A DNA stretch of 64,000 bases, from positions 3,013 through 67,012 of IMG/VR virus record IMGVR_UViG_3300012971_001434, one strand, 5' to 3'. Numbering within the stretch: position 1 is the stretch's first letter; each line of letters begins with the position of its first letter. A program made the translations under genes and the position numbers. A model generated the notes under the pieces. That model was given only the letters and a program-made list of their open reading frames with translations, was not told the origin of the DNA and made no database searches. This document shows, piece after piece, positions 85 through 64,000 of this stretch. Source of the stretch: a virus (Duplodnaviria > Caudoviricetes).

Positions 85-324
85 ATGGCTACGCCCGCAG
101 ACCCGTTTCTGGAGGAAATGGGCCGCCGGATGCGCACCAGGCGGGAGGCACTGCATTTGTTGTCCTATGAGGTTGCCAGGCGCATTGGGATGCCAGCGCC
201 GACCTATTCCAAGCTGGAAAGAGGGAGCAAGAAACTGATTCAGCCGCAGCAGTTGGCCCGACTGGCCTGCGTGTTAGAGACGACCGTCGATGCGCTCCTG
301 CCGCCCATGGCCGAGTGTCCGTAG
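85..324 (+). CDS. XRE-family HTH transcriptional regulator
   Basis: 79 aa; RMRTRREALHLLSYEVARRIGMPAPTYSKLERG...LARLACVLETTVDALL fits the Cro/CI HTH pattern; GGGGG SD upstream. Confidence 0.85.
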   Translation: MATPADPFLEEMGRRMRTRREALHLLSYEVARRIGMPAPTYSKLERGSKKLIQPQQLARLACVLETTVDALLPPMAECP

Positions 325-398
325 CCAGAGAGCGGGGCACGGCGTGAGGCAGGCCCCGCTCCCATCGTGCTGACCCGTGGACGGTGATCAGCCCTGCT

Positions 399-429
399 AG
401 TATAGCGCAGACCTGCGCTGAGGTGTCAA
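399..429 (-). promoter_or_regulatory. sigma70-like promoter with 19-bp spacer containing a dyad
   Basis: Minus strand TTGACA (429-424), 19 nt, TATACT (404-399); dyad AGCGCAG-AC-CTGCGCT at 404-419. Confidence 0.5.
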
Positions 430-433
430 GCTC

Positions 434-637
434 ATGCCCTGGTCCTTGGAGTTTACCGCGACCCATCTACGGGATTGTGTCGAACTCAGTGACGAGCCGG
501 ACCACCCCTTGCGCCTGCGCGTCGACGTCACCGATACCCAGTTAGAGGCGTTGCAGGCAGCCATCGACGCGGTCAGGCGCCAGCGCCAGCAGACGCATGA
601 TATCGCCTATGCGCGCAGGCAGAGGCGGACACTATGA
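434..637 (+). CDS. hypothetical protein
   Basis: 67 aa; stop overlaps traF start (ATGA). Confidence 0.6.
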   Translation: MPWSLEFTATHLRDCVELSDEPDHPLRLRVDVTDTQLEALQAAIDAVRRQRQQTHDIAYARRQRRTL

Positions 638-1116
638 CGCTGCCGCGCCCCAACCTGAGTAGCCTCGTGCTTGCTGGCCTCGTCCTCGCCGCGCTGGTGA
701 GCACGCGCTGGATCCGCCTCAATATGTCGCAGTCAGCCCCTGGAGGCTTCTACTGGCTTCAGCCGGTCGAGGTGCCCCTGATGCGGGACACCCTCGTGGT
801 GCTGCCAGTGCCCGCGAGCGTGCAGCCCTGGCTCAGCCGCTGGACCAAGCTCTTGAAGCCGGTAGCGGGAGTGCCTGGGGATAGCGTGTGCATCGCCGAG
901 CATCACCTGTTTGTCAATGGCTGGTGGCATGGACAAGTGCTGGAGGAAGCGCACGGGAAAGCGTTGCCCCAGTTGCCGGAGGGCTGTCAGACGGTGCCGG
1001 AGGGCCATGTCTTCCTGGCGACGCCGTTTTCACGCAGCGTAGACGGGAGATACTTCGGGATGACCCCCGTTGCCGATCTCACGGCGGAAGCGAAACCCTT
1101 ACTGATTTGGAGGTGA
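634..1116 (+). CDS. traF: S26-family conjugative pilin-processing peptidase (TraF)
   Basis: N-terminal TM; NMSQSAPGGFY, LLKPVAGVPGDSVC and SVDGRYFG motifs. Confidence 0.9.
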   Translation: MTLPRPNLSSLVLAGLVLAALVSTRWIRLNMSQSAPGGFYWLQPVEVPLMRDTLVVLPVPASVQPWLSRWTKLLKPVAGVPGDSVCIAEHHLFVNGWWHGQVLEEAHGKALPQLPEGCQTVPEGHVFLATPFSRSVDGRYFGMTPVADLTAEAKPLLIWR

Positions 1117-1119
1117 TCC

Positions 1120-2024: not shown

Positions 2025-2168
2025 ATGGTGTACTGGCAGTTTCTGCTCGCCGTGGGGCAGTGGGCGCAGGAGCATTCCGCCCTGATGCTCGCCTGCTGGG
2101 GCACCGTCGTCGTGGTGCTGGGGGGACGAGAGGTGCTCCGCATGATCGCGCGAAGGGGACGGTCGTGA
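2025..2168 (+). CDS. small membrane protein (47 aa)
   Basis: Translated by hand: MVYWQFLLAVGQWAQEHSALMLACWGTVVVVLGGREVLRMIARRGRS; stop overlaps virD4 GTG. Confidence 0.5.
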   Translation: MVYWQFLLAVGQWAQEHSALMLACWGTVVVVLGGREVLRMIARRGRS

Positions 2169-3658
2169 CGCTGTTCGAGGGTCTCGTAGCCTTAGGCCAC
2201 TGGGGCCAGCAGCATCCCCGCCTGATCTGGGGGACGCTGGCCGGTGGCTTCCTCCTGGGGGGAGGGCTGCGCCTGGTGACGGGGGGCCATCGGCGCCGTC
2301 GCACGATGCATGGATCGGCGAGGTGGGCAACCTACGGCGAGGTCAAGCGCAGTGGTCTGTCACGGACGCATGGTGTGGTGGTGGGGGAGATGCAGATGCA
2401 GACCTTCTACGATAATGGCGCGAAGCATGTCTTTCTGTGCGGCCCTACGCGGTCAACGAAAGGTGTCTGCCATATCCAGCCCACCCTCCGGACGGGATGG
2501 CGCCAGAGTGCGCTCATCCTCGATCCCAAGCGCGGCGAAAACTACGACCTGACGCACGAGGCCAGAAGGCAGGGGGGGCGTGTCGAGGCCTTCACCCCGT
2601 ATCAGTTGCCCCAGGCGCGGCTCAATGTGATGGACACCATCCGTCTCAAGACGCTTGATGAACACGGCGATGCCCTGACGATTGCCCAGAGCCTGGTGGC
2701 CCCCTATAAGATGATCGCCGAGAACGCCACCAGCCTGCACTTCCGGGAACTGGCGTCCCTGCTCCTCACCGCCGCGCTGCTGCATGTGAGCTACACGGCC
2801 CCGCGTCGCTCGCTGGCCGCCGTCTGGCACTTCCTCACGCAACAGCACCGCACCCTGGGCGAGTGCCTGAAGACGATGCGCACAACGCCGCAGACCCCGC
2901 ATGGGGTGCATCCGACGATTGCCCAGTTCACCGCCGCCATCCAGAACATCACGGGCGATCGGGAACTGAGCAGTGTCTGGAGCACGGTCGTGCGCCCACT
3001 CTCGCTGTACGCAGACCCGCTCATTGCCGCCAGCACGGACACCTCGACGCTGGCCTTGGGCGATCTCCAGCATGGCACGGAGCCGCTGTCCCTGTACCTG
3101 CTGGCGCCCTCGCCCCGTGCGCTGGAGCGCCTGCACCCGGTCTACCGCGTCATCGTCGATGTGGCCATGGCCCGGCTCACCGATCGCCCGGTCAGCGCCA
3201 GCGCGAGGCGGTTGCTGGTCTGTGCCGAGGAGTTACCGGCGTACGGGTATATGCACAGCCTGAACAAGGGGGCGAGTGATATGGCCGGGTACGGCATCAA
3301 GGGGTTCTACGTGGTGCAGGACCTTGATCAGTTCGAAGATGTCTACGGCAAGCAAAATAGCATCTGGGGCAATACGGAGACGAAGATCTTCCATGCCCCC
3401 GATAACGAACGCACGGCCGAGCGCGTCAGCCGCTACATCCTAGGGGCGGCGACGGTGGAGAATCCTGTCGCCTCGCGGCAGGGGTTCCTCAGGGATGGCT
3501 CGGTGTCCTATCAGCATGTGGAGCGCCCGCTCCTGACCACGGACGAGGTCCAGGCGCTCGACCCGGCCCAGATGATCGTACGGCGCACTGGAGCCAAGCC
3601 GATGTTGTTGTACAAGGTGGGATATGACCCGAAGAAGCGAAAGGAGGCGGCGGCGTAA
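2165..3658 (+). CDS. virD4: type IV coupling protein VirD4/TraG with variant Walker motifs
   Basis: HGSARWAT, GPTRSTKGV, LILDPKRGENY, YGIKGFYVVQDLDQFEDVYG, RPLLTTDEV; likely GTG start at 2165. Confidence 0.92.
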   Translation: MTLFEGLVALGHWGQQHPRLIWGTLAGGFLLGGGLRLVTGGHRRRRTMHGSARWATYGEVKRSGLSRTHGVVVGEMQMQTFYDNGAKHVFLCGPTRSTKGVCHIQPTLRTGWRQSALILDPKRGENYDLTHEARRQGGRVEAFTPYQLPQARLNVMDTIRLKTLDEHGDALTIAQSLVAPYKMIAENATSLHFRELASLLLTAALLHVSYTAPRRSLAAVWHFLTQQHRTLGECLKTMRTTPQTPHGVHPTIAQFTAAIQNITGDRELSSVWSTVVRPLSLYADPLIAASTDTSTLALGDLQHGTEPLSLYLLAPSPRALERLHPVYRVIVDVAMARLTDRPVSASARRLLVCAEELPAYGYMHSLNKGASDMAGYGIKGFYVVQDLDQFEDVYGKQNSIWGNTETKIFHAPDNERTAERVSRYILGAATVENPVASRQGFLRDGSVSYQHVERPLLTTDEVQALDPAQMIVRRTGAKPMLLYKVGYDPKKRKEAAA

Positions 3659-3874
3659 ATGTGGGACTTGATCTATATCGACATTGGCGTACTCGTCGTG
3701 CCAGTGCTGCTGGCGCTCCCGATATTCGCCCTCGTCCTGCTCGGGCGTGGGGCCTGGGAACTCTGGCAGTATGGGCGGCGGCGCGGACACATGCAGCACG
3801 CGAGGAAACAGCGATGCGGAACATACTGCGGAAAGCAACAACAGCGGGCATACCCCTGGCAGGCTATGCCCTGA
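3659..3874 (+). CDS. possible small membrane protein
   Basis: 71 aa with one hydrophobic segment; overlaps the pilin start by about 60 nt. Confidence 0.35.
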   Translation: MWDLIYIDIGVLVVPVLLALPIFALVLLGRGAWELWQYGRRRGHMQHARKQRCGTYCGKQQQRAYPWQAMP

Positions 3875-4140
3875 TCTACGGCGTGAGGTCGGCGGCAGCG
3901 GGCGGCTTCGGCATTGCCGGCCTGGATGCCTTTCTCACGACATTTGCGACTGGCGTGACCGGGATGGGGATCCTCATTGGCGGGGTGGGCCTGGCCGGGT
4001 ACATTGGGTCGCAGATGGACAACCCGTTCAGTACAATACTTGCTGGCTCCATAAATTTTTTTACTAAGGCAGGTATTTTGGGCGGTGGGACGGCCATGCT
4101 CGGGACGCTCGGCCTGGTGGCAGGAGGGACGCTCTATTGA
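3814..4140 (+). CDS. trbC: TrbC/VirB2 pilin precursor
   Basis: ATG 3814 after GAGGA; signal peptide ending SAAA; two Gly/Ala-rich hydrophobic helices; directly upstream of trbD. Confidence 0.8.
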   Translation: MRNILRKATTAGIPLAGYALIYGVRSAAAGGFGIAGLDAFLTTFATGVTGMGILIGGVGLAGYIGSQMDNPFSTILAGSINFFTKAGILGGGTAMLGTLGLVAGGTLY

Positions 4141-4593: not shown

Positions 4594-4893
4594 TTGGCGG
4601 AACAGGGGTCGCTCATCCACGGCTTCCAGGTGCCCATCTTGCGCGGCGTCTGGGAGCGCATTATCACGTTCGGTGCCCCGCGCATCTACGCCCGTACCTG
4701 GGCCTGTCTGTGGCTGTTCATCGGGCTGATTCTGCTGACGTACTGGGGGTTTAGGTGGTTAGCCGTGCCGTTCCTGGGATGGCTCCTCGGGCAGGGCGTG
4801 CTCGTGCTGCTCACGCAGTGGAACCCTAGATGGGACGACATGATGTATGCACAGATGAATCAGCGCTATAAGGCGCGTTACTCGGCGGGATAA
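4594..4893 (+). CDS. trbD: TrbD/VirB3
   Basis: TTG start after AAGGAG; GFQVPILRGVWERIITFGAPR, two TMs, WNPRWDD. Confidence 0.85.
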   Translation: MAEQGSLIHGFQVPILRGVWERIITFGAPRIYARTWACLWLFIGLILLTYWGFRWLAVPFLGWLLGQGVLVLLTQWNPRWDDMMYAQMNQRYKARYSAG

Positions 4894-5471: not shown

Positions 5472-5948
5472 GTGGCTGAGGTCGAGCAGGTCATCCTCCG
5501 CTGTCAGCAGTGCCACGAGCCCGTCCGCGTCCCCCTCTTTCCCCTGATCAATCACGGGGAACGGGCCTGCGCCTGTACCTTCGTCGGCGGCACGGATCCC
5601 TGGCCCGACTGGTGGCAGGCGGAACGCGTGCAGGACGAAGGCGCCGGGGGCGAGGCGGCGCCAAGGAGAGAAGCCGTGGAAACGATTTGGAAATATCCGG
5701 TCCCCATCGCCGACACGTTCACGCTGGAGTTAGCGCCGGGGGCCCGACCGCTCAGTGTGCAGTGTCAGGACGGCGCCCCCTTTCTCTGGGTGCTCCTTGA
5801 TCCCAGTCTGGGGCCTGAGCCCCGACATTTTCACCTGCTCGGCACGGGCCACCCCCGTGGCGCACGCTCCCTGGGGACGTTTCTGGGGACGTTCCAGCTT
5901 GCTGGCGGCACCCTCGTGTTTCACCTCTTTGCTGAGGATGCGTCCTGA
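5472..5948 (+). CDS. phage-type hypothetical protein inserted in the trb operon
   Basis: CxxC..CxC N-terminus; C-terminal TIWKYP..GTGH..GTFQL.GG.LVFHLF motif seen in uncharacterised phage proteins; stop overlaps trbE ATG. Confidence 0.7.
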   Translation: MAEVEQVILRCQQCHEPVRVPLFPLINHGERACACTFVGGTDPWPDWWQAERVQDEGAGGEAAPRREAVETIWKYPVPIADTFTLELAPGARPLSVQCQDGAPFLWVLLDPSLGPEPRHFHLLGTGHPRGARSLGTFLGTFQLAGGTLVFHLFAEDAS

Positions 5949-8503
5949 TGCCGGTCTTCGCTGAGTACGTCCGCCCCAAGCCTGCGCCGGATCGTGTCAG
6001 TGACAAAATGCCCTGGCGAGCCGTGATTGCGCCCGGCGTGGTGCTCCAGAAGGACCGCTGGCAGACGCTGCAACGCACCTATGCCGTGCGCGGCCCCGAT
6101 GTCATGGGGCTGGCGCGCGAGGTGCAGGGGGCCCTCATCATGCAGGCCAACACGGTGCTCAAGAAGTTTGGGGGCAAGTGGATGCTCCACTCCGAAGCCC
6201 AGCGCGTGCGCGTCACCGACCTGCCGCCGCTGCCCGAGGAGACCCCGCTGCTCGTGCGGCTCCTCGACGCCGACCACCGCGCCCGGCTGCTGGCCCATCC
6301 CGGTATCCGCGAGACGACGTACTATCTGACGCTTTCCTGGACGCCGCCGCCGCCGAGCATGCAGCGCTGGGGGGGCTGGTTCGTGCGCGGGCCAGGGAGC
6401 CCGGCGCGACCGACCCACGGCCTGGGCACCGTGGTGCGGGATTTTCTGGACCAGGCCGATTACTTCATGGACTTGCTCAAAGGCGTGCTGGCGGAATGCC
6501 GCCCCACCACCACACCGGAGACGCTGACGTATCTCCATAGCTGCGTGTCAGATCGCTGGTATAAGATCGGGCTGCTGGCGTCCCTCATGGATATCGATCA
6601 CCAGCTCTGTGACACCGCCCTCGACCCGGCCGGCTGGTATCCGCAACTGGGGCGCTGGCATATCCGCGTCTGTTCGGTCAATGGCTACCCGCGTCAGTCC
6701 GTCGTCGGCATCATGCGCGACCTGGAAGCGTTACCGCTGGACTTTCGCTGGTGCACCCGCTGGCTGGGGCTCGAGCGCCATGTCCAGGACGGCATCTTGC
6801 GCAAAGCCCAGGGCGCCTGGGTGCACGAGGAAAAAGGTCTCAGTGATCGCCTGAGTGAGAACTTGAGCCATGAAGCCACTCGCGTGCTCAACCGCGACGC
6901 GACCAACAAAGCGGAGGATGTGGACATCGCCCGGCAGGAGATCGGCGCGGACCTGCTCGCCTATGGGCAGTTCACCAGTACCGTGACCGTCTGGGACGAA
7001 GACCCGGAGCGGGCCGATGAGAAGCGCCGCCTGGTGATGCAGGCCTTTGCCACGCGGGAAATTGCCACGGTGGAAGAAGGCGCCCACCTCGTGGCGGCCT
7101 GGTTTTCGAGCCATCCCGGCAACCGCGTCGACAACGTCAACCAGACCCACCAATCGTCGCTGACGCTGGCGCACTTCTGCCCCGGCCTGACGGCCGCCTG
7201 GCGCGGACCCGAGCGGGACACCTACCTCCAGGGGGGCCCCTGGTGCTATGTGCAGACGGAAGGCCACACGCTCTTTCGCATCGTCAATCATCTCAGAGAC
7301 TTAGGGCATTTTCTCGTGCTCGGGGCCACCGGGGCCGGCAAGAGCACGCTGGGGAACTGGCTGCGCGCCATGTGGCTGCAATACCCCTCCTCCCAGGCCA
7401 AACTGTTTGACATTGATGGGCATGGCCGGCTGCTCACCCTCCTGCTCGGCGGGAGTTGGTTTGACCTGGGGGGCCCGACGGCTCGCTTTCAGCCCTTGCG
7501 CCACATCGACGACCCGCTCCGGCGTGGCATCGCCATCCAGTGGCTCCTCGACCTGATGGAGGAGTACCACGTGCCGGTGACGGCCACCGTGCAGGCGCAC
7601 ATTGGCGGCAACATCCTCAAGCTGCTGCGCTATCCCCACGGAGGACGCACGCTCAGTACCCTGCTCACGCTGATGGCCGACGGGGCCCGGGAGACGGAAC
7701 TCAAAGCCAAGGCTGGTCGCATCGATGCCCAGGGGATCAGTCACCCCGATACGGACCTGCGTGCCCTCGTGAAGGAGTGGCAGGAGGTGCGCTGGGTCCT
7801 GCAACGCTTTGCGGATGGCGGGGAGTATGACGGGCTCTTTGACGGCACGGAGGATGATTTTGACGACAACCCGATCCAGACCTTTGAGCTGCGCGACCTG
7901 CTGCAGCGCCCCCGCCTACTCGGCCCGATCCTGCGCTACGTGTTCCCGCAGATTGAGCTGCAGATGACGACGGACCACCCCATGCTGTTCCTGTTTGACG
8001 ATGTGGCTATTCCGTGGGAAATCCCGAAGATCCGGCAAGACTCGAAGGACTGGCTGCGCACCACGCGCAAGAAATCGGTGAGCCTGGGCTTCATGACCCA
8101 TAGCCTCGCGGACATCTTTGGGGCGGAGGAGGGACGGATGAGCGACATGGGACCGATGCTGGTTGAGTCGTGCCCTGTCAGGTTCTATTTGGCCAATCCT
8201 GAAGCAGCCAAGCCGACCATCCGGGCCATCTACCGGCGCATTGGCCTGGAAGATACCGCCATTGACCAGGTGGCGATCATGCGGCCCCAGCGTGACGCCT
8301 ATTACGAGCTGCGGGAAGTGGGGCAGCGGCCCTTCTCGCTGGCGTTCAGCCGCTTCATCCTGGATTGCATTGCTAGGAATACCGCGGAAGACCATCGGCT
8401 CATGGATGAGATACTGGGGAAGGAGGGCCGGGAAGGCTTTGCCGCCGCCTGGCTGCGTCATCATAACTATGAGGACATCCTGCATGCACACCAGATCTTC
8501 TGA
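5948..8503 (+). CDS. trbE: TrbE/VirB4 ATPase
   Basis: 851 aa; GHFLVLGATGAGKST Walker A; LFLFDD Walker B; RKKSVSLGFMTHSL; ESCPVRFYLANPEA. Confidence 0.95.
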   Translation: MPVFAEYVRPKPAPDRVSDKMPWRAVIAPGVVLQKDRWQTLQRTYAVRGPDVMGLAREVQGALIMQANTVLKKFGGKWMLHSEAQRVRVTDLPPLPEETPLLVRLLDADHRARLLAHPGIRETTYYLTLSWTPPPPSMQRWGGWFVRGPGSPARPTHGLGTVVRDFLDQADYFMDLLKGVLAECRPTTTPETLTYLHSCVSDRWYKIGLLASLMDIDHQLCDTALDPAGWYPQLGRWHIRVCSVNGYPRQSVVGIMRDLEALPLDFRWCTRWLGLERHVQDGILRKAQGAWVHEEKGLSDRLSENLSHEATRVLNRDATNKAEDVDIARQEIGADLLAYGQFTSTVTVWDEDPERADEKRRLVMQAFATREIATVEEGAHLVAAWFSSHPGNRVDNVNQTHQSSLTLAHFCPGLTAAWRGPERDTYLQGGPWCYVQTEGHTLFRIVNHLRDLGHFLVLGATGAGKSTLGNWLRAMWLQYPSSQAKLFDIDGHGRLLTLLLGGSWFDLGGPTARFQPLRHIDDPLRRGIAIQWLLDLMEEYHVPVTATVQAHIGGNILKLLRYPHGGRTLSTLLTLMADGARETELKAKAGRIDAQGISHPDTDLRALVKEWQEVRWVLQRFADGGEYDGLFDGTEDDFDDNPIQTFELRDLLQRPRLLGPILRYVFPQIELQMTTDHPMLFLFDDVAIPWEIPKIRQDSKDWLRTTRKKSVSLGFMTHSLADIFGAEEGRMSDMGPMLVESCPVRFYLANPEAAKPTIRAIYRRIGLEDTAIDQVAIMRPQRDAYYELREVGQRPFSLAFSRFILDCIARNTAEDHRLMDEILGKEGREGFAAAWLRHHNYEDILHAHQIF

Positions 8504-8747
8504 TCCCCTCGTCGCTCTGTGGCACGATACCACCCGAGCGCTGCACTGGCGCTCGTGGTGTCCTCTGCCCTCCCACGAGCAGGCGGTCATGCGCCTGATC
8601 CTTTGCCGGGAGTTGCAGGAGTTGGATCATGATCCGGCATGGTCGAAATCGCCGTGGGCATGGAGACATACACATTGGCAACTGCTTGAATTGAAAGCCT
8701 GTGCGGGGCACAGCGTGTGGGAGGGCGCGCGTGGAGACGAAGCATGA
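8484..8747 (+). CDS. hypothetical protein (87 aa)
   Basis: ATG 8484 after GAGGA; fills the trbE-trbF gap. Confidence 0.5.
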   Translation: MHTRSSDPLVALWHDTTRALHWRSWCPLPSHEQAVMRLILCRELQELDHDPAWSKSPWAWRHTHWQLLELKACAGHSVWEGARGDEA

Positions 8748-10616: not shown

Positions 10617-10915
10617 ATACAGAGACGCGTCGCGTCACGCTGCGCTATGGGCTCTGCACCATCCCCGCGGGTCGCACCCTCGACCGGTATCTGTTCAGCG
10701 ATCTGGCGCATGCCAGACGGTGGCTGACGCAGCCCTGCGTGACGGAGTCGGACTATGAGGTCGCCATCGTGCGGGTGGCCAGGAGTACGCGGCGCTGTCC
10801 CGACTGTGGCTATCGGCGGGACATCTGGTTGCACCCGTTTCAACGCCTGACCATCGCGCAGTTCCTCGCGCAGAGCACCGCCTCGCCGGCGCCGCCAGAC
10901 GGAGGCCAGCCATGA
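10613..10915 (+). CDS. hypothetical protein with CxxC
   Basis: 100 aa; ATGA overlaps at both ends. Confidence 0.65.
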   Translation: MNTETRRVTLRYGLCTIPAGRTLDRYLFSDLAHARRWLTQPCVTESDYEVAIVRVARSTRRCPDCGYRRDIWLHPFQRLTIAQFLAQSTASPAPPDGGQP

Positions 10916-20644: not shown

Positions 20645-20657
20645 AGGAGCACCAGCC

Positions 20658-21049: not shown

Positions 21050-21082
21050 CCGGCACCAAGACGCAGCTCCGCCCTCTCCATA

Positions 21083-21754: not shown

Positions 21755-21757
21755 GCG

Positions 21758-43566: not shown

Positions 43567-43661
43567 CTCTTGCCTGCGCCGCTTGCGTGTCCGTGTCCTT
43601 TTTGCTAGGCTGGTTTGGTGGGTCATGCAGGTGCATCCTTTTCACATCGAAAGGCCTCGTT

Positions 43662-43961: not shown

Positions 43962-43985
43962 CATCCTCAACCTGCCGCCGGGGCC

Positions 43986-46118: not shown

Positions 46119-46132
46119 GATTGTTCCCTTTC

Positions 46133-49351: not shown

Positions 49352-49352
49352 A

Positions 49353-49916: not shown

Positions 49917-49927
49917 TGATTTTCCTA

Positions 49928-51435: not shown

Positions 51436-51529
51436 TGCGCCTCCCGATAGGTGCAAAGGTTAGGGGTTATGCTGGTGTTCAGAGCACCAGCAGACCCCGA
51501 TATTATATAACATTTTGATTTATAATGCA

Positions 51530-54500: not shown

Positions 54501-57500
54501 CCCAACCGCGCGGAATATTCATAGAGCCAGACATCTTCGGTCGGGCCCCCGGTCGTCGCCGTGGGCAGCGCAATCCCGGTATTCGCCGTCCAGAAGGCTC
54601 CCCACGTAATAGCGCGGCTGACGGTGGAATGCACCCGAAAGCGCAGCGGCTGGCTGGGACGCACCGAGCCACTCGGGATGTCAATGAGCGTGGCCTGCTG
54701 GAGGTCGCTGAGCACGAACACGTCACAGGCGTCGAGATTGAGCACCAGCGGCGTGATCGTGGTGGGCTGCGAGCACTGGCGGGGGGTGACGCGCGTCTGC
54801 GTCACTTCCTGCACATCGGTGGTGCCCAGCAGTTGCCCACTCGGCGCGGCTTTGCTGCTGATGGTGGCGACGCCCGCAGTGACGGTCGAGAGCAGGAGTC
54901 CGGTGGGGAGCGCCGCCAGATTTATACCCGCCGGCATATCGCTTGAGGGTGTGACCAGGAGGGCTTTGGCGGTACTGGAGCCCCCCGCGCTCGGCGGCGC
55001 GGCACACACCAGCGCCCCCGTCCCCTGGATGCCGGTGGCAAACGTCCCGGCCGTCGGGCACGTGAAACCCACAAAACCGGCCAGATCCCCCGTGCCCGTG
55101 GCCGCCTGGAGCGTCCCCGCAGGGCCGACCGGATTGACCAGGAACCCCGAATGCAGCGTCGGAGTGGGCGCGTTATCGACGTACTGCAACTGGCCGCTGG
55201 CGAAGGTCTGCATGGTGCCAGCCTGCCCGACCCCACTCACCAGATTCGCCGTGCCGCCCGCCAGGAAGCCCGGCTTGGTCGACGCCGTCGCCACGGTCGT
55301 GCCGGTGAGCGTCAGCCCGGCGCCCGCCAGCAGCGCGGCCTGGTAGCCGGTACACACGGTCGTCGTCGTACACACGGTCGTCGTGCCACTGAGGTTGCTG
55401 AAGTCCAACTGACTCACCGTCAGCGGGCCGCCGGCGGTGGCCTGTCGCACGACCTGATTCGCCCCGCCCGTCGCGGAGAAATCCGTCGTCCCCGCTGGCA
55501 ACGTCAGGGTGCCACTGCCCGCCACGGCGGCAGCCTGGACGGTCAGGCTCCCGGAGGTCGCGCCGAGGAGCAGGAGGCGCAGCATGGACTGGCCGGCCGG
55601 ATGCGCAAAGCTGTTGGCCTTGGTGAGGTCGGCGGCATTACTCACCATGGCCGCGGTGTAGTCGCCCGCGGTGGCGACAACGGCTCCCGTGCGCCCAAAG
55701 ACACTGCTGACCGCGCCCCCGCCGCCCCCGGCGCCGCCCCCGATATCTGAGGCACAGACAATCTCCCCCGCCACATCCATCGTCAGCTTGCCGCCGTTGG
55801 TGTCGCCCGTACAGGCCGCCGGCGTCACGTTCCATTTCAAATTGCTCTGCGTGAGATAGCCGGTATGCAGGAGGGACACGGACGCCCCATCCGTGTACTG
55901 GAGGCGGCCATCGGCCAAGACTTGCATCTTGCCCTGGTTGTACGCTCCACTCGCCAGATCCGGCACGGCGGCGACGAGAAAGCCGGGGGAGGACGACAGC
56001 GTACTGGCGACACCGCTGCTGAATTGCAGACCATTGCCCCACGTAAACGCCGGTTGCAGGCCGGTGACGGCCGTATCCACATACGTTTTCACCGCCGCTT
56101 GCGTCGGGTACAACGTGTTGCTCGTCCCCAGGCTGGTACTGGTGGCCTTATTCGCGACATTTTCTGGCGTAAAGCCGAGCGTGATGCCCTGCACCGCCGT
56201 ATCCACATAGGTTTTGACGGCGAGTTGCGTGGGATAGAGCAGGTTGCTGCCCCCCAACGTCGTACTATTCGACTTGTTCGCCACGTTTTCGGCCGTAAAG
56301 CCGAGCGCCGCCTGATAGCCCGGACACACCGTTGTCGTCGTGCAGACGGTCCCGGCACCGCCCACATCGCTGAGCGTGAGCTGACTCACCGTAAACGGTC
56401 CCCCCGAGCTGGATTGCCGCAGCACCTGGCTCGGGCCGCCGGTGCCGGAGAAATCCGTCGTGCCGGCCGGGAAGATGAGCAGCGACGTCCCGGCTTGGGG
56501 CGCCGCTTGCAGCGCCAGTTGCCCCGACGTCGCGCCGGGGAGGACGAGGCGCGACATCGTCTGGCCCGCGAAGTGCGTAAAGATATTGGCCGCCGTGCGA
56601 TCGACCGCGTTGGGAATCTGCGCGACCGTATAATCCCCCGTCTGGGCGGTGATGGCGCCGGTCCGTCCAAACACGCTCGTCACCGGCACCGGCGTGACAT
56701 CCACACTCGACGCCACGACATTGCCGTTGGCGTCATACTGGAGTTGTTTGCCCACGAGCAGGGGCCCCGTGGCGGTGAGCACCTCGAGCGTCGTGCCCGT
56801 GCGCGTGCCAGTTACGGGCGCCTGGCCGGGACCGCCGCCAAACAGCGGGGCTTGCAGGGGCAGCGCCGGCGAGGAGGCCATCGTGCTCGCGCTGGGAAAG
56901 TACAGGAGTCCCCCGCCCGTGCCGCTCGTGAGCCCGGTGCCGCCCTGGGATACCGTGACCGGCACCGTGAGGCCGGCAGCCCCGCCAATGTCCGCCGTCG
57001 AGGCCACGACGTTGCCGTTGGCATCGAACGCTAATTGTTTGTTGGGGGTGATGGTGCCAAGGACGGTCGCCAGCTCCCGCGTGGTCCCCGACAGCGTGCC
57101 GGTCACGGGCGCCTGACCCGGTCCCCCGCCCAGTAACGGGGCATTGAGCGGCAGCGTCGCGGTCGCCAGCATGGTCGTCGGCGTGCTGAAGTACAGGAGG
57201 CCTCCGGTCGAACCGCTCGTGAGTCCGGTACCGCCCTGGGGCACGGGGACGGGCAGCGCCAGGCCTCCGGTGCCGCCACCAATATCGGTGGCGCTGGCAA
57301 TGACGTTGCCGTTGGCATCAAAGGCCAATTGTTTGTTGGGGGTCAGAGCGCCCAGGACACTCGCCACCTCGAGCGTCGTGCCCGTGCGCGTGCCGGTGAG
57401 AGGCGCGTTGCCGGGGCCGCCCCCAAAGAGGGGGGCATTGAGCGGTAAGGCGCCGGTTGAGGCAAGCGTGGTCGGACTGCTAAAGTACGGCAGGCCGCCG

Positions 57501-57823
57501 GTGGTGCCCAGCGTCAGGCCGGTGCCGCCTTGTGCGACGGGCAGGGGGGCCGCCAGATGGGTGGCGGTCACCTGGCCGGCCGCTGACACATCCACGCCGC
57601 TGGGGACGAGGCCCTGCACCATGTTTGCGGTGACCGGCGCGCAGACGAGGAGTCCCGTCGTGGCAATGCCGATGCCGACCTCGTTCACACACTGACTGGC
57701 CGGAAAGGTGGGAGGGGCGCCGCCCCCACCACCCCCCGGCGGTAGGGTCTGCGCCGGCCCGTGGGCCGGCCCGAGCAGAAGCGTTCCAACTAGCAGCCAG
57801 CAGAGCAGGAGAGCACGGCGCAT
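51530..57823 (-). CDS. 2097-aa repetitive tail-fibre-like protein with signal peptide
   Basis: [24 protein letters not shown]; [47 protein letters not shown] repeats. Confidence 0.88.
52080..53990 (-). repeat. about 95-aa repeat, 5 copies (2 partial)
   Basis: [43 protein letters not shown] unit. Confidence 0.9.
56700..57550 (-). repeat. about 97-aa repeat, 3 copies
   Basis: PV.QGGTGLT.G..GGL.YF...LP..APL.GGGPG.AP.TGT unit. Confidence 0.9.
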
Positions 57824-57838
57824 GCAGGCGCTCCAGGG

Positions 57839-58216
57839 TCAAGGATTATTGCGATAATAGGTGACATACAGCGCGGCATCGGCGGTCTGGCGAATGGCCT
57901 GAAACGCGCGAATCGAATCAATCCCGCAAATGATGAACGTCTGGGGCGGCGTGCCGAAGACCGGATGGCCGACGGTCGCGGTGGGCGTGCCGCTGACGGT
58001 ATAGCGCAGATCGCCACTGTTGACACTCACCACGGCGAGGGTGGGCGTAATCCCGGTGGGTTGATAGATCGCGGCGGTGAGGCCGGTGACCGTCGTGGAA
58101 ATGGTCAGCGTTTCGGTGGCGAACGGCGCTTGCTTGACCGTGACGCCAGGACACTGCGCTTGGCTCAGCAGCGGTACGCACAGCAAGGCAAGAGCGAGCA
58201 GCCAGCGACGCAGCAT
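57839..58216 (-). CDS. small secreted protein
   Basis: Signal peptide MLRRWLLALALLCVPLLSQA; GAGG SD. Confidence 0.75.
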   Translation of the reverse strand: MLRRWLLALALLCVPLLSQAQCPGVTVKQAPFATETLTISTTVTGLTAAIYQPTGITPTLAVVSVNSGDLRYTVSGTPTATVGHPVFGTPPQTFIICGIDSIRAFQAIRQTADAALYVTYYRNNP

Positions 58217-58343
58217 CGGATACCTCGGAAATCGCCTGAGCCTGAGAAACGCAGTCGCGCGTATCGCCCGGCCAGGGTGTGGGCCTAGCCGGGGGCGCGT
58301 TTTGGAAGACGTGCTGTGGCAGAGAGACAGGCAAGCCGGGCAC

Positions 58344-58390
58344 AAAAAAAGCGTGCTTGAGCGAGACCTGGATCTCTCCCAAAACACGCT
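58344..58390 (-). terminator. intrinsic terminator
   Basis: Minus strand AGCGTG...GAGA-N8-TCTC...CACGCT followed by a T run. Confidence 0.65.
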
Positions 58391-58396
58391 AGCATC

Positions 58397-58426
58397 ATTG
58401 TAAACGTGACACTTGAACTATGTCAA
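58397..58426 (-). promoter_or_regulatory. sigma70 promoter
   Basis: TTGACA-18-TACAAT with TGACA-N9-TGTCA dyad. Confidence 0.65.
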
Positions 58427-58450
58427 TTCCTTTGCCGAAAATTCATCGTG

Positions 58451-58717
58451 CTAGCCAGGCGTGTAGGGCGCCTCAGCATCATTGCCGGTCTCCTCATAGA
58501 CGAGCGCCCCGTGCTCCGCGTCAAACTGGCAGGCCGTCAGCGACACGGGGAGGCTGATCTGGGCCGCGGCGAGGAGGCGCAGGAGCGTGGCGTGATGGCG
58601 GTGCTCCATGTCTTGCGCCAGCAGCCGGGCCTGCATCTGCGCGAGGTCATGCTCCAGCATGGCGATCTGCATGCGTAAGGCCGTCTCCAAGGGCAGCAGG
58701 ATCTGTTTACGAGCCAT
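58451..58717 (-). CDS. small coiled-coil protein (possible tail-fibre chaperone)
   Basis: 88 aa, directly after the S74 fibre gene. Confidence 0.6.
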   Translation of the reverse strand: MARKQILLPLETALRMQIAMLEHDLAQMQARLLAQDMEHRHHATLLRLLAAAQISLPVSLTACQFDAEHGALVYEETGNDAEAPYTPG

Positions 58718-58729
58718 CGCGCAGCGCTC

Positions 58730-59776
58730 CTAGGGGATACGCTTGCGCCGAGCTGGGGCATGGCCCTCGGCACTGTCCACCCCGGTCACTCCTTCCAAGT
58801 GTTCCAGACGCTCGGCCAATTCCTTGACGGCATTCACCAGCATATAGGTCACCGGCGTCATGTCCAGGGCGTGCACCATGGCGGTCTGGCGGGCCTCTTC
58901 AGGCCCCCATTCCGCCTGATAGGGATGCAGCATATACGGGGCAACCGGCTCGACTTCCTCCGCAATGAGGCCCAGACAGCGCTGGCCTGTGGGCAGGTTC
59001 ATCTCGCCGGTAAACTCATACCAGCGCGGCAGGAGCTGGCGCACCTGGGCCAGGCCATCCGGGAAGGCCACGATGTCTTTCTTGAAGCGCGCATTGGAGC
59101 CCGAGGCCAGCCAGCCCCCCGCGGTGGGTTTCGCGACATCATCGCCCGCCGCCTGGATCAAATGCTGCGGGCTCACATTGGAACCCACCATCAGCCCGGT
59201 ATTGTTGATCACGATCTGAGCGCCGGCGCCCGGACGGGTAAATTGCAAATCCCCATTGTTGATGGTGATGAACTGCCAGCACGAGTTGGCATTGCTTTTA
59301 TTGCGGGAGATCTGGATCCCCGTGGTGTTGTTCAGGCCGACAAACATATCGATGCCGGTGTTGTCCGCGGGCGCGGCATTGAGTTCCCAGGCAAAGCCCC
59401 CGCCACTATTGGACTGCACAAACGTGGTACAGACCAGATTCGTAATTTCCATGGGCGTCGCAACCGTGCTTTTGGTGATGACACCCGGCCCCGTTTTCCA
59501 ATTATTTTGCCAGGCCATGACCAGGCCCACCGCCAGCGCCGCGCCCGACGCGACATTCACCGTCACCCCCTGCGGAATAAGCCAGATGACATTGCTCGGC
59601 ACGCTCAGATTGCTCGTGATGCTCCACACCCCCGTGCCGGTATAGGTGAGGACGAGGACCGCGGGCGTACTGCCAATGGCCGTATGTGCGGCCTGAATGG
59701 TGGCTTGCGTGAGCGCCGTGCCGTAGCGCAGCGCATCGACATAGGACATATGCTCCTGAGCGAGCATGTGCGGCAT
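58730..59776 (-). CDS. tail fibre/spike with C-terminal peptidase S74 chaperone
   Basis: SNARFKKDI..LAQVRQL.P..Y..GLIAEEV..LVNAVKEL; no signal peptide. Confidence 0.88.
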   Translation of the reverse strand: MPHMLAQEHMSYVDALRYGTALTQATIQAAHTAIGSTPAVLVLTYTGTGVWSITSNLSVPSNVIWLIPQGVTVNVASGAALAVGLVMAWQNNWKTGPGVITKSTVATPMEITNLVCTTFVQSNSGGGFAWELNAAPADNTGIDMFVGLNNTTGIQISRNKSNANSCWQFITINNGDLQFTRPGAGAQIVINNTGLMVGSNVSPQHLIQAAGDDVAKPTAGGWLASGSNARFKKDIVAFPDGLAQVRQLLPRWYEFTGEMNLPTGQRCLGLIAEEVEPVAPYMLHPYQAEWGPEEARQTAMVHALDMTPVTYMLVNAVKELAERLEHLEGVTGVDSAEGHAPARRKRIP

Positions 59777-59798: not shown

Positions 59799-62700
59799 CT
59801 AACTGACGACGATGGACAGCAAACTGCCCGCCGCCTGGATATGCGTGAAGGCATCGACGGCTTCATGCAGATTGAGCGCCGGGGTGAGCCCCGGAATTTG
59901 CTCACTGCTCGGCACGAGCTGCACGCTAATACGCCAGGTCGCTGCGAGCGGGATGCCGCCGCCGTCGCCGGGTCCACCCGCGCCCGGCCCCACATTGCTC
60001 ACCAGCGCCTGCCCCGTATTGTAGGCCGTGAGATTCCACATGGTGCCGGCCGCATCGGTGAGGACGGCCGGTTGATAGGTGCCCAGGCCGCTGGGAATGG
60101 TGGTCTGGAGAAAGAAGGTGTCCCCATGCACTGTCACGTACCACGTGGTATTCACCTCATCCACGACCGTAAACCACACGACCGGCGTGCCGCCAGGGGT
60201 GTGGTCCGAGCCGCCGCTGATGGTGGTCGTCAGGCTCGGGACTTCAGCATCCATGTAGAAGGCATAGAGGACGCCGGCACTGTCCCGCATGCGCCAGTAA
60301 TCCGCTGAGCCGGGCACGGGGGGATCAGGCCCTGCCCCCGGCCCCGGCCCGCCGCCCACCGGAGGCGTCGCCACCAGCGCTTCCTCCGGTGCGTCCATCG
60401 TCAGCGTCCACACCGCGCCCGTGCTATCGGCGAGGTGGGCGGCCTGGTAGGTGCCGGTACCGCTCGACGCCGTGAGCGCGGCCTGGAGCGTGTCCCCCTG
60501 CACCGAGACATACCACGTCGTATTGTTTTGATCGGCGGCGACAAACCAGGGCAGTGGGGCCCCGCCGGGCGTCGTCTCATGGCCCCCCGTGATGCTCGTG
60601 GTCAGTGTCGGCACCTCAGCCTCCATAAACAGGGCATAGGTAGTGCCCTGATCGTCTACGAGGCGCCAGTAGTCGGCGTTGGTGGGAATAGTGGGGGGCG
60701 GTGTGGTGGGCGGCGTACTGGTCGACGTACTGGTCAGCAGGGCCTCCTCACCGCTCGACACCGTGACGTACCAGACCTGTCCACTGGCGTCATGCAGGGT
60801 GAGCGCCGTACTCGTGCCCGCCCCGCTCGGCGCCGCCCCGCTGACGGTCAGCGTGTCCCCGGAGGTAGCGAGATACCACGTGGCGCCGGTCTCGTCCTGG
60901 AGGCTCACCCAGGTGAGGGGCGAGAGGCTCGGCGTCTGATTCGAGCCGCCACTATAATCGTAGGTCAGTGTCAGCACCTCGCCCTCAATCCACAGGGCCG
61001 CGCCCGTCCCCGTGCTGTCATAGAGCACCCAGTAGTCGGCGTTGGTGGGGATGGTGGTGGACGGCGGGGTAGACGGCGGCGGCGTGGTAACGGTCGTGGG
61101 GCTACTGAGCAGCGCTTCCTCACCGCTCGACACCGTGACAGCCCAGGCTTGGCCATCCGCGTCATGCAGGATCAGTGCCGTACTTGTCCCTGCCCCACTC
61201 GGTGCCGTAGTCGTGACGCTCAGCGTATCCCCGGAGGTAGCGAGATACCACGTGGCGCCGGTGTCGTCCTGGAGGCTCACCCAGGTGAGGGGCGAGGTGC
61301 TCGGCGTGGTATTCACGCCGCCACTAAAATCATAGGTCAGCGTGACGACCTCGCCCTCAATCCACAGCGCCGCACCCACGCCCGCGCTGTCATAGAGCAC
61401 CCAGTACTCCGCCGCCGACGGCAGGGTCGTGGTCAGTGGCGTCACCTCCGGCAGCTGCGTGGTGACGACGGGGGCGATCGCCCCCGTTTCCAGGTACGGA
61501 GCGCTGAAGAGTCCTGTCGTGATGCCGGTCTGCGAGGTCTGCGTTGCCACCAGCGCCTGCTCGGTCAGGCTCACGGTCAGCGTCCAGAGGATGGGCTGCG
61601 TATCGGCCAGGATGGCCGGCGTGTCCGCGCCAATGCCGGGCGGAACTGTGAGGGAGACAACCAGGGTATCGCCGGCAATGCTCACAAACCAGCGCTGATG
61701 TCGTGCATCAAAGGCCAGGAACCAGGACAGCGGATCGTCGCTCGGCGTGTAGTCCACGCCTCCCGGCGGCGGCGACAGGCCGATGGTCGGGATCTCCGGC
61801 TCCATCCAGACATAGTAGGGCGTGCCGACATTGTCGATCATGCGCCAGTAGTCCGGGTGCCCGGCACTAAGCTGGGTGGCGGTGAGTTGCCAGCGCTGGT
61901 CCAGTTCGTCGAGGAAAAAGACCGGTTCGCGCCAGCCCCACGGGGACCCAATCGGCGGCGCAATGTCGCCCATCGGGGCGCCCGTGGGCGAGGGATAGGC
62001 ATAAATGGCGCCGTTGGGGATGGGGATACGCACCCAGCCAATCTCGCCCCACGGGCTCTGATCGATACTGTTCGGCCAGAGGTGCGCGCTCCATTGCAGG
62101 AGTCCCCGATGCACGCGCCAGAACCAGCGGGCGCCCGTCCCATCATTGAGGCACATCGTCGTGGCATGGCCCTGGGTCGTGACGGCAGGGGCACTGCTGA
62201 CCCCCAGCGTCCCGGTCGGCGTAATCCCGTAGTGCCAGAGGACACCTTGCTGATCACCGAGGGCTTGCGGTGTCGCCGTGCCACGCCCGCCTGGCGAGGT
62301 CTGCGAGACCTGGAGCACGCCCCCAGTCGAGGGGTAGGCATACCACAGCGCTTGCTCCTGGTCGTAGAGCCGCAGCCACTGATAGGGACCGCCCGCAGGG
62401 GTGGCGTTGAGCGAGTCGGCGGGTTGCGTCGAGGTCATCGTGACATGCTGGCTCTGGATCCACAGCCACCAGAGATGGCCCATCCTATCGACCAAGTTGA
62501 GCGCCTGGAAGGGATAGCCTGGGGAGAGCAGGGTCAGGATGGGATTGCCCGTACTCACGGCGACGGGCATGAGGGCTTCTTCCTGAGACGCCACAGTGAG
62601 CTGCCAGCGCACCCCGGCGCCGTCCTGCACCTCGAACACGGTCGTCGTGCCAGGGCTCAGCGGCTGCGTCTGACTGATCGTGAGCGTATCGCCCGCAATG

Positions 62701-63299
62701 GTCACATACCACGTCTGGCTGAGGTCATCCAGCACGGTGAACCAGTGCAGCTTGTGGGGTCCAGGAGCCACGTCGATCCCAGGCGGAGGCATCTGGGAAA
62801 TCATTGGGAGGCCGCTCTCGACGGTCACCGCGTACCATAGGGCATCAGCACTCACCATGCCCCAGTAGCTGTAGGGCGACGTCACCGGCTGCGTATCAGC
62901 CACAAAGACATGCTGTTCACTGCGGCCCGTCCGCAGCGTCAGGTGCGTCTGATCGAAGAGCAGATCAGCCAGAATACGGATGCAGTCGAGCGTGCCCTTG
63001 GGATGCCAGAGAATGTGCATGCCGACTTGCCGGGCGTAGGCATCGGGGCGCTGGAGGTAGCGACGTAACCCGTAATCTTCAAGTAAGACATCAAGGTCCA
63101 CGCCCTGCGCCTGAAGCAGGAGGGTCATCGTGGACGCGATGGATCGATTCTCTATGAAAATGGCCATCTGCGCGGCAAAGGCCCGATAGAGGTCGCGCTG
63201 CAAGGTCTCGGACTGGGGATCGGTGTCCCACAGACTGGGCGGCAGCCTTTTGAGCATTCTCTCAAGAATCTCGGCCGTCGAAGTCGTCAGGCTAGGCAT
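59799..63299 (-). CDS. baseplate wedge/tail protein I-like protein with 8 tandem beta-rich repeats
   Basis: N-terminal RLPPSLW..LLLQAQG.DLD..YGLRRY..PDAYAR..KGT; repeat YW.L.D..G..W....GDTL..D..G..W.LT. Confidence 0.7.
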   Translation of the reverse strand: MPSLTTSTAEILERMLKRLPPSLWDTDPQSETLQRDLYRAFAAQMAIFIENRSIASTMTLLLQAQGVDLDVLLEDYGLRRYLQRPDAYARQVGMHILWHPKGTLDCIRILADLLFDQTHLTLRTGRSEQHVFVADTQPVTSPYSYWGMVSADALWYAVTVESGLPMISQMPPPGIDVAPGPHKLHWFTVLDDLSQTWYVTIAGDTLTISQTQPLSPGTTTVFEVQDGAGVRWQLTVASQEEALMPVAVSTGNPILTLLSPGYPFQALNLVDRMGHLWWLWIQSQHVTMTSTQPADSLNATPAGGPYQWLRLYDQEQALWYAYPSTGGVLQVSQTSPGGRGTATPQALGDQQGVLWHYGITPTGTLGVSSAPAVTTQGHATTMCLNDGTGARWFWRVHRGLLQWSAHLWPNSIDQSPWGEIGWVRIPIPNGAIYAYPSPTGAPMGDIAPPIGSPWGWREPVFFLDELDQRWQLTATQLSAGHPDYWRMIDNVGTPYYVWMEPEIPTIGLSPPPGGVDYTPSDDPLSWFLAFDARHQRWFVSIAGDTLVVSLTVPPGIGADTPAILADTQPILWTLTVSLTEQALVATQTSQTGITTGLFSAPYLETGAIAPVVTTQLPEVTPLTTTLPSAAEYWVLYDSAGVGAALWIEGEVVTLTYDFSGGVNTTPSTSPLTWVSLQDDTGATWYLATSGDTLSVTTTAPSGAGTSTALILHDADGQAWAVTVSSGEEALLSSPTTVTTPPPSTPPSTTIPTNADYWVLYDSTGTGAALWIEGEVLTLTYDYSGGSNQTPSLSPLTWVSLQDETGATWYLATSGDTLTVSGAAPSGAGTSTALTLHDASGQVWYVTVSSGEEALLTSTSTSTPPTTPPPTIPTNADYWRLVDDQGTTYALFMEAEVPTLTTSITGGHETTPGGAPLPWFVAADQNNTTWYVSVQGDTLQAALTASSGTGTYQAAHLADSTGAVWTLTMDAPEEALVATPPVGGGPGPGAGPDPPVPGSADYWRMRDSAGVLYAFYMDAEVPSLTTTISGGSDHTPGGTPVVWFTVVDEVNTTWYVTVHGDTFFLQTTIPSGLGTYQPAVLTDAAGTMWNLTAYNTGQALVSNVGPGAGGPGDGGGIPLAATWRISVQLVPSSEQIPGLTPALNLHEAVDAFTHIQAAGSLLSIVVS

Positions 63300-63498
63300 C
63301 GCGTTCTCCGCGCACCTCCTGTGCGGTGTCTGCCTCCACGCGTGTCTGAAAGACGTACAGGGCCGCGTCAAGGAAGTCCTGAGCTGCGCCCTGCGTCTCG
63401 GGCGTAGGATCCTCGACGCCATAGAGGAGGGCGTCGTCGTCAGCCTGGAGCAATGCTTTGACCTGGGGATAGCGATCAATCCAGTCAGCAAGTGGCAT
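63292..63498 (-). CDS. hypothetical protein
   Basis: 68 aa between baseplate genes. Confidence 0.55.
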   Translation of the reverse strand: MPLADWIDRYPQVKALLQADDDALLYGVEDPTPETQGAAQDFLDAALYVFQTRVEADTAQEVRGERDA

Positions 63499-63501
63499 AG
63501 C

Positions 63502-63744
63502 TCAGGTCCTCTCGTGGTTAGCCCAAGCGGGCGGGCATTCCATATCACCCACACACGCTCCGACATAATGGCGGCACGCGGCATTGACACACCAGACATA
63601 ATAATCCGTGTGCATCTCCTCGGAGGGATCAGGGGCATGACTGGAATCCGTGGCATACGTTGGTGCGCCACACGCTAAGCATGTCCCATCGCGCCAGACG
63701 ATGTCGCCGTCACGCGGGGCCTGACGAATATCGGAGGGTGGCAT
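63502..63744 (-). CDS. small Cys-rich protein
   Basis: CLACG..WCVNAAC. Confidence 0.55.
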   Translation of the reverse strand: MPPSDIRQAPRDGDIVWRDGTCLACGAPTYATDSSHAPDPSEEMHTDYYVWCVNAACRHYVGACVGDMECPPAWANHERT

Positions 63745-63747
63745 AGC

Positions 63748-64000
63748 TTATACCTTATAGACGTTGACAGTAATGCGTCCAGGCATGGGTTTGACCCCGA
63801 TGCCACCGCCGACGGTACCGGCGGGTGTCGTGCTGAACGCCGTGGGGAGACGGTAGATGATATTGAAGACCTCGACCACCGTAGAGTCAATCACGCCATC
63901 CGTCTGCATCAGCGTCACCACCTGCCCCACGCTGGACTGATACAGGAACGTATAGAGCGCATTGGCAATAGCGCTTTGACTGCGGGTGGGGTCCGGCGTA
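63748..64000 (-). CDS. C-terminal end of probable baseplate J-like protein (runs off the window)
   Basis: Open frame ...IANALYTFLYQSSVGQVV..GVID..PGRITVNV; position upstream of the gpI-like gene. Confidence 0.5.
   Translation of the reverse strand, partial: TPDPTRSQSAIANALYTFLYQSSVGQVVTLMQTDGVIDSTVVEVFNIIYRLPTAFSTTPAGTVGGGIGVKPMPGRITVNVYKV

Follow-up and report, generated by a model that had tools for sequence, protein, structure and literature searches.

Phage infection and conjugation are usually seen as alternative strategies of mobile DNA. Hybrids of phage and plasmid type are described as phage-plasmids, including P1, N15 and SSU5 (Pfeifer et al. 2021, PMC7969092), and according to a review of 2025 no phage-plasmid or prophage has yet been found conjugative (PMC12282955). 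Phage and conjugation genes do occur on one molecule in p1002-1, a conjugative phage-plasmid of Escherichia coli (bioRxiv 10.1101/2025.03.14.643293), in Streptococcus tandems of a phage and an ICE (integrative and conjugative element; PMC13651849), and in conjugative megaplasmids with prophages (PMC12934698). Here, we describe a 64,000-nucleotide stretch of soil virus DNA, referred to as the window (bases 3013-67012 of the lone 67,012-bp contig of IMG/VR record IMGVR_UViG_3300012971_001434). Its plus strand encodes a Trb/VirB-type type IV secretion system (T4SS), a coupling protein and a MOBQ relaxase between 2.0 and 16.1 kb. Phage genes lie on both sides of this transfer set, which is not an addition at one end. 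A lineage of this kind would blur the divide between the two strategies.

The window is probably the middle part of the genome of an uncultivated myovirus-like soil phage of about 125-135 kb. We regard it as highly probable that the T4SS part and the phage part form one replicon, and just as probable that this element is a real tailed phage. A tailed phage with a conjugation system had been one of two proposals in an earlier sequence-only reading of this DNA. It is borne out by a terminase, a portal and a Baseplate_J protein linked to the window and by comparison with two IMG/VR relatives. The first, G002 (122,663 bp, from the same JGI sample), shares the structural arm, with sheath, tube, SLT and Baseplate_J (65% identity) proteins and tail fibers at 30-62%. 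It also has a methylase-terminase pair, a GpE-like capsid protein (Atlas TM 0.88-0.92), a connector, a head-completion protein and a large helicase (44%), and no VirB4, relaxase, DUF3987 primase or RecT was found in it. Because G002 shares the flanking genes but is without the T4SS, both flanks of the T4SS are phage backbone. The second, G001, a viral contig of 40,992 bp, matches the window in VirB4 (47%), VirB9 (52%), relaxase (51%), primase (68%) and RecT (44%), and genes for a portal (DUF4055), Mu_F, a capsid protein (GP7) and a probable terminase lie on the same contig. The association of T4SS and phage is not a recent fusion, since it is present again in a relative whose VirB4 is only 47% identical.

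Genes were called with Pfam, NCBIfam and PHROG profiles, and E values are given per feature. The conjugation and secretion genes are as follows.

85..324, plus strand: small helix-turn-helix (HTH) regulator of the Cro/cI type, upstream of the transfer genes (HTH_31/HTH_3 in the identical 79-amino-acid [aa] gene of sibling contigs)
634..1116, plus strand: S26 signal-peptidase homolog (Pfam Peptidase_S26, E 1.4e-15)
2060..3658, plus strand: VirD4/TraG type IV coupling protein (T4SS-DNA_transf, E 9e-56; TraG-D_C; TrwB_AAD_bind)
3814..4140, plus strand: candidate VirB2/TrbC-type pilin, Gly/Ala-rich and hydrophobic on sequence inspection (108-aa gene called in sibling contigs)
4594..4893, plus strand: VirB3/TrbD-like protein with two membrane helices predicted from hydrophobic segments (40% homolog directly upstream of the G001 VirB4)
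5472..5948, plus strand: DUF7352 protein, its end meeting the start of VirB4 (Pfam, E 6.7e-22)
5948..8503, plus strand: TrbE/VirB4 ATPase (NCBIfam TrbE, E 2.3e-172; Walker A GATGAGKS)
8701-9483, plus strand: VirB8 (Pfam VirB8, E 6e-13)
9480-10616, plus strand: VirB9 (Pfam CagX, E 1.7e-31)
Within 8701..11928, plus strand: Cys-rich 100-aa open reading frame (ORF) between VirB9 and VirB10
10912-11928, plus strand: VirB10 (Pfam TrbI, E 9.8e-41)
12208-12564, plus strand: lipoprotein candidate (lipobox-like LSGC motif on inspection)
12542-13225, plus strand: TrbJ/VirB5-like protein, weak (TrbJ, E 3e-6)
13234-14163, plus strand: TrbL/VirB6 (TrbL, E 5e-5, slightly under the curated cut-off)
14811..16058, plus strand: MOBQ-family relaxase (MobA_MobL, E 3.7e-13; MobQ, E 3.8e-12)

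This set comprises VirB4, a coupling protein, a relaxase and the type-specific VirB3/B5/B6/B8/B9/B10 proteins by which CONJscan defines mating-pair formation systems of type T (MPF-T). Among the channel genes, those of VirB8, VirB9 and VirB10, the predicted envelope-spanning core, are clear. VirB6 and VirB5 are weak but syntenic and conserved in G001, and VirB3 is assigned by topology and position. The lipoprotein candidate, the TrbJ/VirB5-like protein and TrbL/VirB6 each have a homolog in G001, and all T4SS components are full length in that distant relative. The relaxase keeps its N-terminal Tyr and a PHLHLIL histidine motif. No family matched the pilin candidate. By analogy with the RP4 system, we take the S26 peptidase to be a candidate TraF-like pilin-maturation protease. 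The sequence-only reading had also described phage-style small ORFs within the trb operon, translationally coupled to trb genes. Four-base start/stop overlaps at four sites (9480/9483, 10613/10616, 10912/10915 and 12208/12211) confirm the coupling. The phage-style description stands for the Cys-rich, zinc-ribbon-like ORFs, which are absent from the distant relative, and fails for the others, which are conserved T4SS parts.

The Trb/VirB (MPF-T) systems of proteobacterial plasmids (RP4/Ti-type, with MOBQ relaxases such as RSF1010 MobA and Ti TraA) have the VirB4/6/8/9/10, coupling-protein and relaxase families in common with this locus, as well as the TraF-like S26 peptidase, a pilin-like gene and an operon with coupled frames. 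Unlike them, the locus has a different gene order, no VirB11/TrbB, Cys-rich small ORFs within the operon and a phage as its host genome, and the best plasmid match to its VirB4/TrbE reaches 35%.

From the relaxase onwards, the same strand runs on through genes for a helicase, a methylase, a primase, RecT, AsnB and a family 2 glycosyltransferase (GT2), and this arm ends at 36.88 kb. That the T4SS-relaxase operon is co-oriented with phage early genes, as had been claimed, is confirmed by Pfam and NCBIfam matches on the plus strand. RecT, the DUF3987 protein and the methylase hold up as early genes, and the HNH endonucleases that had been counted among them are weak.

17393-19306, plus strand: superfamily 2 helicase, 637 aa (ResIII/Helicase_C)
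22993..25002, plus strand: N6/N4 DNA methylase (Pfam, E 3e-7; 36-37% homologs in the matching place in G001 and G005)
28514..30187, plus strand: DUF3987 primase-helicase (Pfam, E 1.2e-11; PHROG DNA primase, E 4e-15; 68% to G001)
31659..32882, plus strand: RecT single-strand annealing recombinase (Pfam, E 1.4e-27)
33944-35902, plus strand: AsnB asparagine synthase (Pfam, E 1.7e-69)
35915-36877, plus strand: GT2 glycosyltransferase (Pfam, E 4.1e-24)

Extension of the contig, which the sequence-only reading had advised as a check, yielded a large terminase and a Mu-type portal leftward and Baseplate_J, SLT and tube proteins rightward. Overlaps were accepted on identical proteins or on DNA at least 99.6% identical. 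JGI contig Ga0126383_10000316 equals bases 1-7082 of the 67-kb contig at 99.9% and runs about 17 kb further left, so that the contig start is a mere assembly break. The added 17 kb encode, on the plus strand, small ORFs, HTH regulators and a 1649-aa WH_1/DUF8437/ResIII helicase. A 42,274-bp ENA contig with identical 313-aa and 103-aa proteins in the same gene series carries a divergent cluster; about 21 kb of this contig lie outside the gene lists read. On the right, the map is extended beyond the window by a 64,162-bp ENA contig whose 2097-aa and GT2 proteins are identical to those of the window.

About -19 to -27.5 kb, minus strand: left divergent cluster on the 42,274-bp ENA contig with an HTH protein, an N6/N4 methylase (460 aa), a 218-aa protein, a Terminase_6C large terminase (574 aa) and a Portal_Mu protein (539 aa)
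To about +77.8 kb, from the ENA gene list, in order: two small opposite-strand genes; Baseplate_J (502 aa); proteins of 916 and 295 aa; SLT protein (742 aa); proteins of 107, 149 and 812 aa; tube-like protein (144 aa); HNH

The terminase and portal lie about 23-27 kb left of the secretion system. The right join is supported by JGI contig L003, at 99.6% DNA identity, which holds the C terminus of Baseplate_J. The 742-aa SLT protein resembles the tape-measure or tail-lysin type. The tail set of the lineage places Baseplate_J, SLT and tube-like genes to the right of the window and the fibers inside it; the sheath gene is seen in relatives L014 and G002, directly upstream of the tube gene (in G002 above the Pfam cut-off). 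A tailocin or an extracellular contractile injection system was considered and is rejected, given the linkage of terminase and portal to the window.

Three contigs of one ENA sample add up to 124.3 kb, with a gap of about 4.7 kb in addition, and a relative's contig of 134,008 bp agrees with this estimate. The completeness of 100% that CheckV assigns to the 67-kb contig is wrong, as the contig represents about half of the genome. Searches of the 67,012-bp contig for a terminal repeat and for tRNAs found none. Its guanine-plus-cytosine (GC) content is about 63%.

The joins within the window were examined in independent assemblies. A 59,416-bp JGI contig carries both the VirB4-to-relaxase genes and the RecT-GT2-fiber genes, and matches the window at 100% over 25915-46877 and at 96.8-99.6% over 4829-17711. 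An ENA contig of 23.7 kb reaches from the contig start to about 20.7 kb, a 23,072-bp Logan contig covers 14570-26000 without any difference, and the 36.9-kb junction is crossed by the 64-kb ENA contig and two Logan contigs. Logan contigs from three soil runs (X1, X2 and X3) were placed on 9000-26000, and per run the depths of T4SS and early-gene pieces were 10.8 and 10.8, about 8-10 and 8-9, and about 5.5-6.5 and 5-5.6. The check on coverage and misassembly proposed by the sequence-only reading was thus passed at joins spanned by JGI, ENA and Logan contigs, with matching depths in all three runs, and misassembly is unlikely. A chimera in which an assembler joined a plasmid or ICE fragment to a phage fragment would find some support in strain microdiversity, which breaks assemblies at 4.8-5.5, 17.2-22 and 63.7 kb. 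Yet the same joins come from at least three assemblers, depth is equal across the T4SS and early parts, and the T4SS-phage association is also present in the relative with 47% identity, which makes such a chimera extremely improbable. In the JGI sample, an assembly break falls on the twin repeated elements at 4137-5360: one contig ends at about 5483 and the other starts at 4829.

Neither an integrase nor ParA, both named as things to look for, was found in the 67-kb contig, which likewise showed no tyrosine integrase, serine recombinase or ParB. The precomputed Pfam lists of the flanks contain no ParA or ParB, and across the known map of about 95 kb no integrase, ParA, ParB, tRNA or chromosomal gene was seen. 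Among the records G001-G005 (four or five searched) there was no integrase and no ParB, and small serine recombinases were confined to G002 and G003. As no partition genes were found, the element does not count as a phage-plasmid. It shares with P1, N15 and SSU5 the hybrid of phage and plasmid type and an apparently non-integrated state; unlike them, it has no detected partition or replication-initiator genes and carries mating-pair formation and relaxase genes. Nor does it count as an ICE, since neither an integrase nor an att site was seen. The second proposal of the sequence-only reading, an ICE with a tail-like machine, is also contradicted by the presence of a terminase and a portal.

A related explanation would make the element mostly a conjugative plasmid, or an ICE, with an acquired prophage, or else a chromosomal phage-ICE tandem, with separable parts. 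Cointegrates and tandems of this kind exist, as p1002-1 and the Streptococcus cases show, and likewise combine phage and conjugation genes on one molecule. Moreover, G005, a close kin of G001 collinear with it over head, terminase, methylase and RecT genes, is labelled "provirus" in IMG/VR and ends about 1.2 kb before the start of G001's relaxase region. However, the known map is free of integration, partition and chromosomal genes as described above, and the T4SS is flanked by gene blocks that also occur in phages: the helicase arm, in common with G002, and the primase-RecT arm, in common with G001 and G005. GC content is also alike in all parts (0.627-0.635, a low-GC island at 17200-22000 aside); a tetranucleotide comparison of the parts was not discriminating. 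No close VirB4 relative was found in 185,579 species genomes (best match, 32-34%), where the nearest homologs, alphaproteobacterial and at 32%, are too distant to name a host. In p1002-1, the Streptococcus tandems and the megaplasmids, two elements that are recognizable and separable have been joined recently. The cassette described here, by contrast, is interwoven with genes of phage replication, lacks a close relative among plasmids and is found again in phages whose VirB4 proteins have diverged to 47% identity. We therefore consider a composite of separable elements improbable and retain a single phage replicon as the preferred interpretation.

In the genome organization we propose, a long minus-strand arm would comprise terminase, portal, head, sheath, tube, tape measure, baseplate and fibers, with the window covering its last 27 kb. 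The opposite arm would combine early and replication/recombination genes with the MPF-T-like T4SS, the coupling protein and the MOBQ relaxase. From the observed gene content and linkage, we infer regulation, an origin and transfer. The cassette would most likely provide a second, contact-dependent route of phage DNA between cells. In this scheme, a transfer origin would be nicked by the relaxase and the coupling protein would deliver the DNA to the channel; the neighboring cell would receive it as a single strand, with no need of the phage receptor, while virions would serve as the long-range route. If true, this virus would infect by two routes, and neither the receptor nor restriction of double-stranded DNA would constrain one of them. 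On the sequence evidence, self-transfer of phage DNA via this T4SS is a serious possibility that falls slightly short of probable.

Several points weigh against this picture. The VirB11/TrbB ATPase profile PF00437 had no match in the 67-kb contig, in which controls matched, and no VirB11/TrbB lies between relaxase and VirB4 of G001. No transfer origin was recognized: the nick core of the RSF1010/Ti type shows no enrichment, and the neighborhood of the relaxase contains no convincing hairpin. The coupling protein has the Walker A motif PTRSTKG (window 2444-2464; VirD4 residues 129-135), in which a Gly kept by 28 of 28 compared relatives is replaced by Thr (29 aligned homologs), a change unique to the lineage; in Walker B, Asp is replaced by Glu at a position that varies among relatives. 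Without plasmid maintenance genes or an integrase, no carrier state was identified in which conjugation would pay. The terminase and portal of the lineage are known from the gene list of one ENA contig, the genome is not closed, and the lineage's own capsid and sheath genes would lie outside the sequence read. Finally, it is the assemblies, more than the environments, that are independent of one another: sequencing runs from 2017 are involved, two of them possibly representing the source sample, and the contigs probably stem from one or a few soil sampling campaigns.

The missing VirB11, the altered Walker A, the unrecognized origin and the fact that the structural relative G002 thrives without the cassette would all fit a T4SS that belongs to the phage without serving to move its genome. 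Such a system might instead secrete protein or DNA, act as an adhesion or contact pilus, mobilize other elements or be drifting towards loss. Against this, relaxase and coupling protein belong to the channel operon and are conserved together with the channel genes down to 47-51% in G001, and the relaxase catalytic motifs are intact. Strain differences are also mostly synonymous, with 4 synonymous and 0 nonsynonymous in VirB4, 64 and 41 in VirB8, and 26 and 11 in VirB9. We judge a T4SS without a role in moving the phage genome to be rather unlikely, and transfer of the phage's own DNA remains the favored function.

The most far-reaching claim would be that a soil clade of non-integrating phages passes its genome straight from an infected or carrier cell to neighboring cells by a virus-encoded conjugation machine, as a single strand and independently of receptors, and that the cassette of T4SS, relaxase, primase and RecT moves between unrelated backbones. 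Movement between backbones is suggested by the two settings of the module, which accompanies a myovirus with a Mu-type portal in the present element and a phage with a DUF4055 portal and a GP7 capsid in G001. Taken as a whole, we regard this claim as speculative and rather doubtful.

The VirB4 clade is represented in metagenomes by at least 120 homologs at 47% identity or more, many on contigs of 80-105 kb. VirB4 and portal homologs are each recorded on one 105,655-bp JGI contig and one 50,619-bp Logan contig, which is circumstantial evidence that these are further joint carriers. Another candidate, a 91% VirB4 homolog and a portal on one 11,972-bp contig, was rejected, as that contig is without VirB4. 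In 50,697 GenBank phage records, VirB4 matched only four unannotated fecal fragments, at 32% or less. Baseplate_J had no match in either collection searched, including these phage records at E 1e-10, and megablast of both window halves against plasmids and phages gave no match. Single-protein scans of IMG/VR with the 1166-aa protein of the fiber arm and with VirB4 returned nothing; G001 and G002 surfaced only in profile scans of that database, where the primase profile re-found G001 and nothing new. Cultured myoviruses have the same order of sheath, tube, SLT tape measure, Baseplate_J and fibers and a Terminase_6-type terminase, but none has a comparable VirB4, and the closest cultured sheath, that of Bordetella phage vB_BbrM_PHB04 (94 kb), is 27% identical over 75% of the query.

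These hybrids bear on where virus and plasmid classifiers cut contigs, as illustrated by the CheckV rating and by the stop of the G005 record ahead of the relaxase region. That record was possibly cut there by a classifier, and virus classifiers may systematically trim or misjudge such hybrids.

The remaining genes of the plus-strand arm and its surroundings include weak endonuclease candidates and a low-GC segment.

17200..22000, plus strand: low-GC, strain-variable cargo island (GC about 0.51-0.56)
27143-27628, minus strand: 161-aa protein; Arc-like ribbon-helix-helix domain (E 5e-7), weak GIY-YIG matches
33003-33467, minus strand: HNH_5, weak (E 0.015)

Besides the helicase, the island holds a HEAT-like 206-aa protein. 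The segment from 17.2 to 22.0 kb is continuous in run X2 and uncovered in X1 and X3. Because both of these runs show loose ends at 17165, it looks like a strain-variable cargo slot, absent or replaced in X1 and X3, and possibly serves defense or counter-defense. Within it, a 157-aa ORF (20171-20644) is 60% identical to an ORF directly downstream of Baseplate_J on an NCBI metagenome contig (L005:11745-12230), and is apparently another gene that changes positions among these phages. Several Cro/cI-type and Arc-type regulators are present. AsnB and GT2, auxiliary genes adjoining the fibers, may modify the fibers or the host surface.

From 36882 to 64000, every large gene lies on the minus strand, forming a 27-kb tail-fiber operon.

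36882..47644, minus strand: distal tail-fiber/receptor-binding genes of 1093, 1157, 710 and 503 aa (Laminin_G_3, Beta_helix; 30-44% to G002 fibers)
48434..59776, minus strand: Laminin_G_3 protein, three small ORFs, 2097-aa protein and S74-type fiber (PHROG tail fiber, E 1.3e-14)
58730-59776, minus strand: the S74-type tail fiber
59799..63299, minus strand: 1166-aa protein with a wedge-like N terminus (phrog_6 baseplate wedge, E 1e-3, weak)

The early genes had been read as converging on a baseplate and fiber operon. This is correct for the fibers and one wedge-like protein, while Baseplate_J itself lies just past the window end. The genes at 48434..59776 are 37-62% identical to, and collinear with, those of G002 and L005. 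In sibling contigs, 2.96 kb separate Baseplate_J from the 1166-aa gene downstream of it, and in L004 the gene follows Baseplate_J directly. The 1166-aa gene contains two overlapping internal repeats of about 440 bp (60596-61406), offset by about 370 bp and 80% identical. The last 256 bases (63745-64000) are unmatched in the siblings L003 and the 64-kb ENA contig, which carry two small opposite-strand genes in their place, and the contig end thus appears to be a strain-variable spot.

On the opposite strand within the tail-fiber operon, a 213-aa ORF (47779-48420, plus strand) has no Pfam match. Copies of it occur between VirB8 and VirB9 of sibling strains (L002:4770-5456, 36% identical) and in G002 (73310-73849, 40%), and it seems to behave like a mobile selfish gene of the homing-endonuclease kind. 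Homing-type domains are also found elsewhere among the relatives. The G002 terminase contains an intein, with a LAGLIDADG_3 domain in the terminase ORF (119120-122137), and the VirB4 homolog P0071 (1221 aa, on a 100,012-bp ENA contig) holds Hom_end and LAGLIDADG_3 domains.

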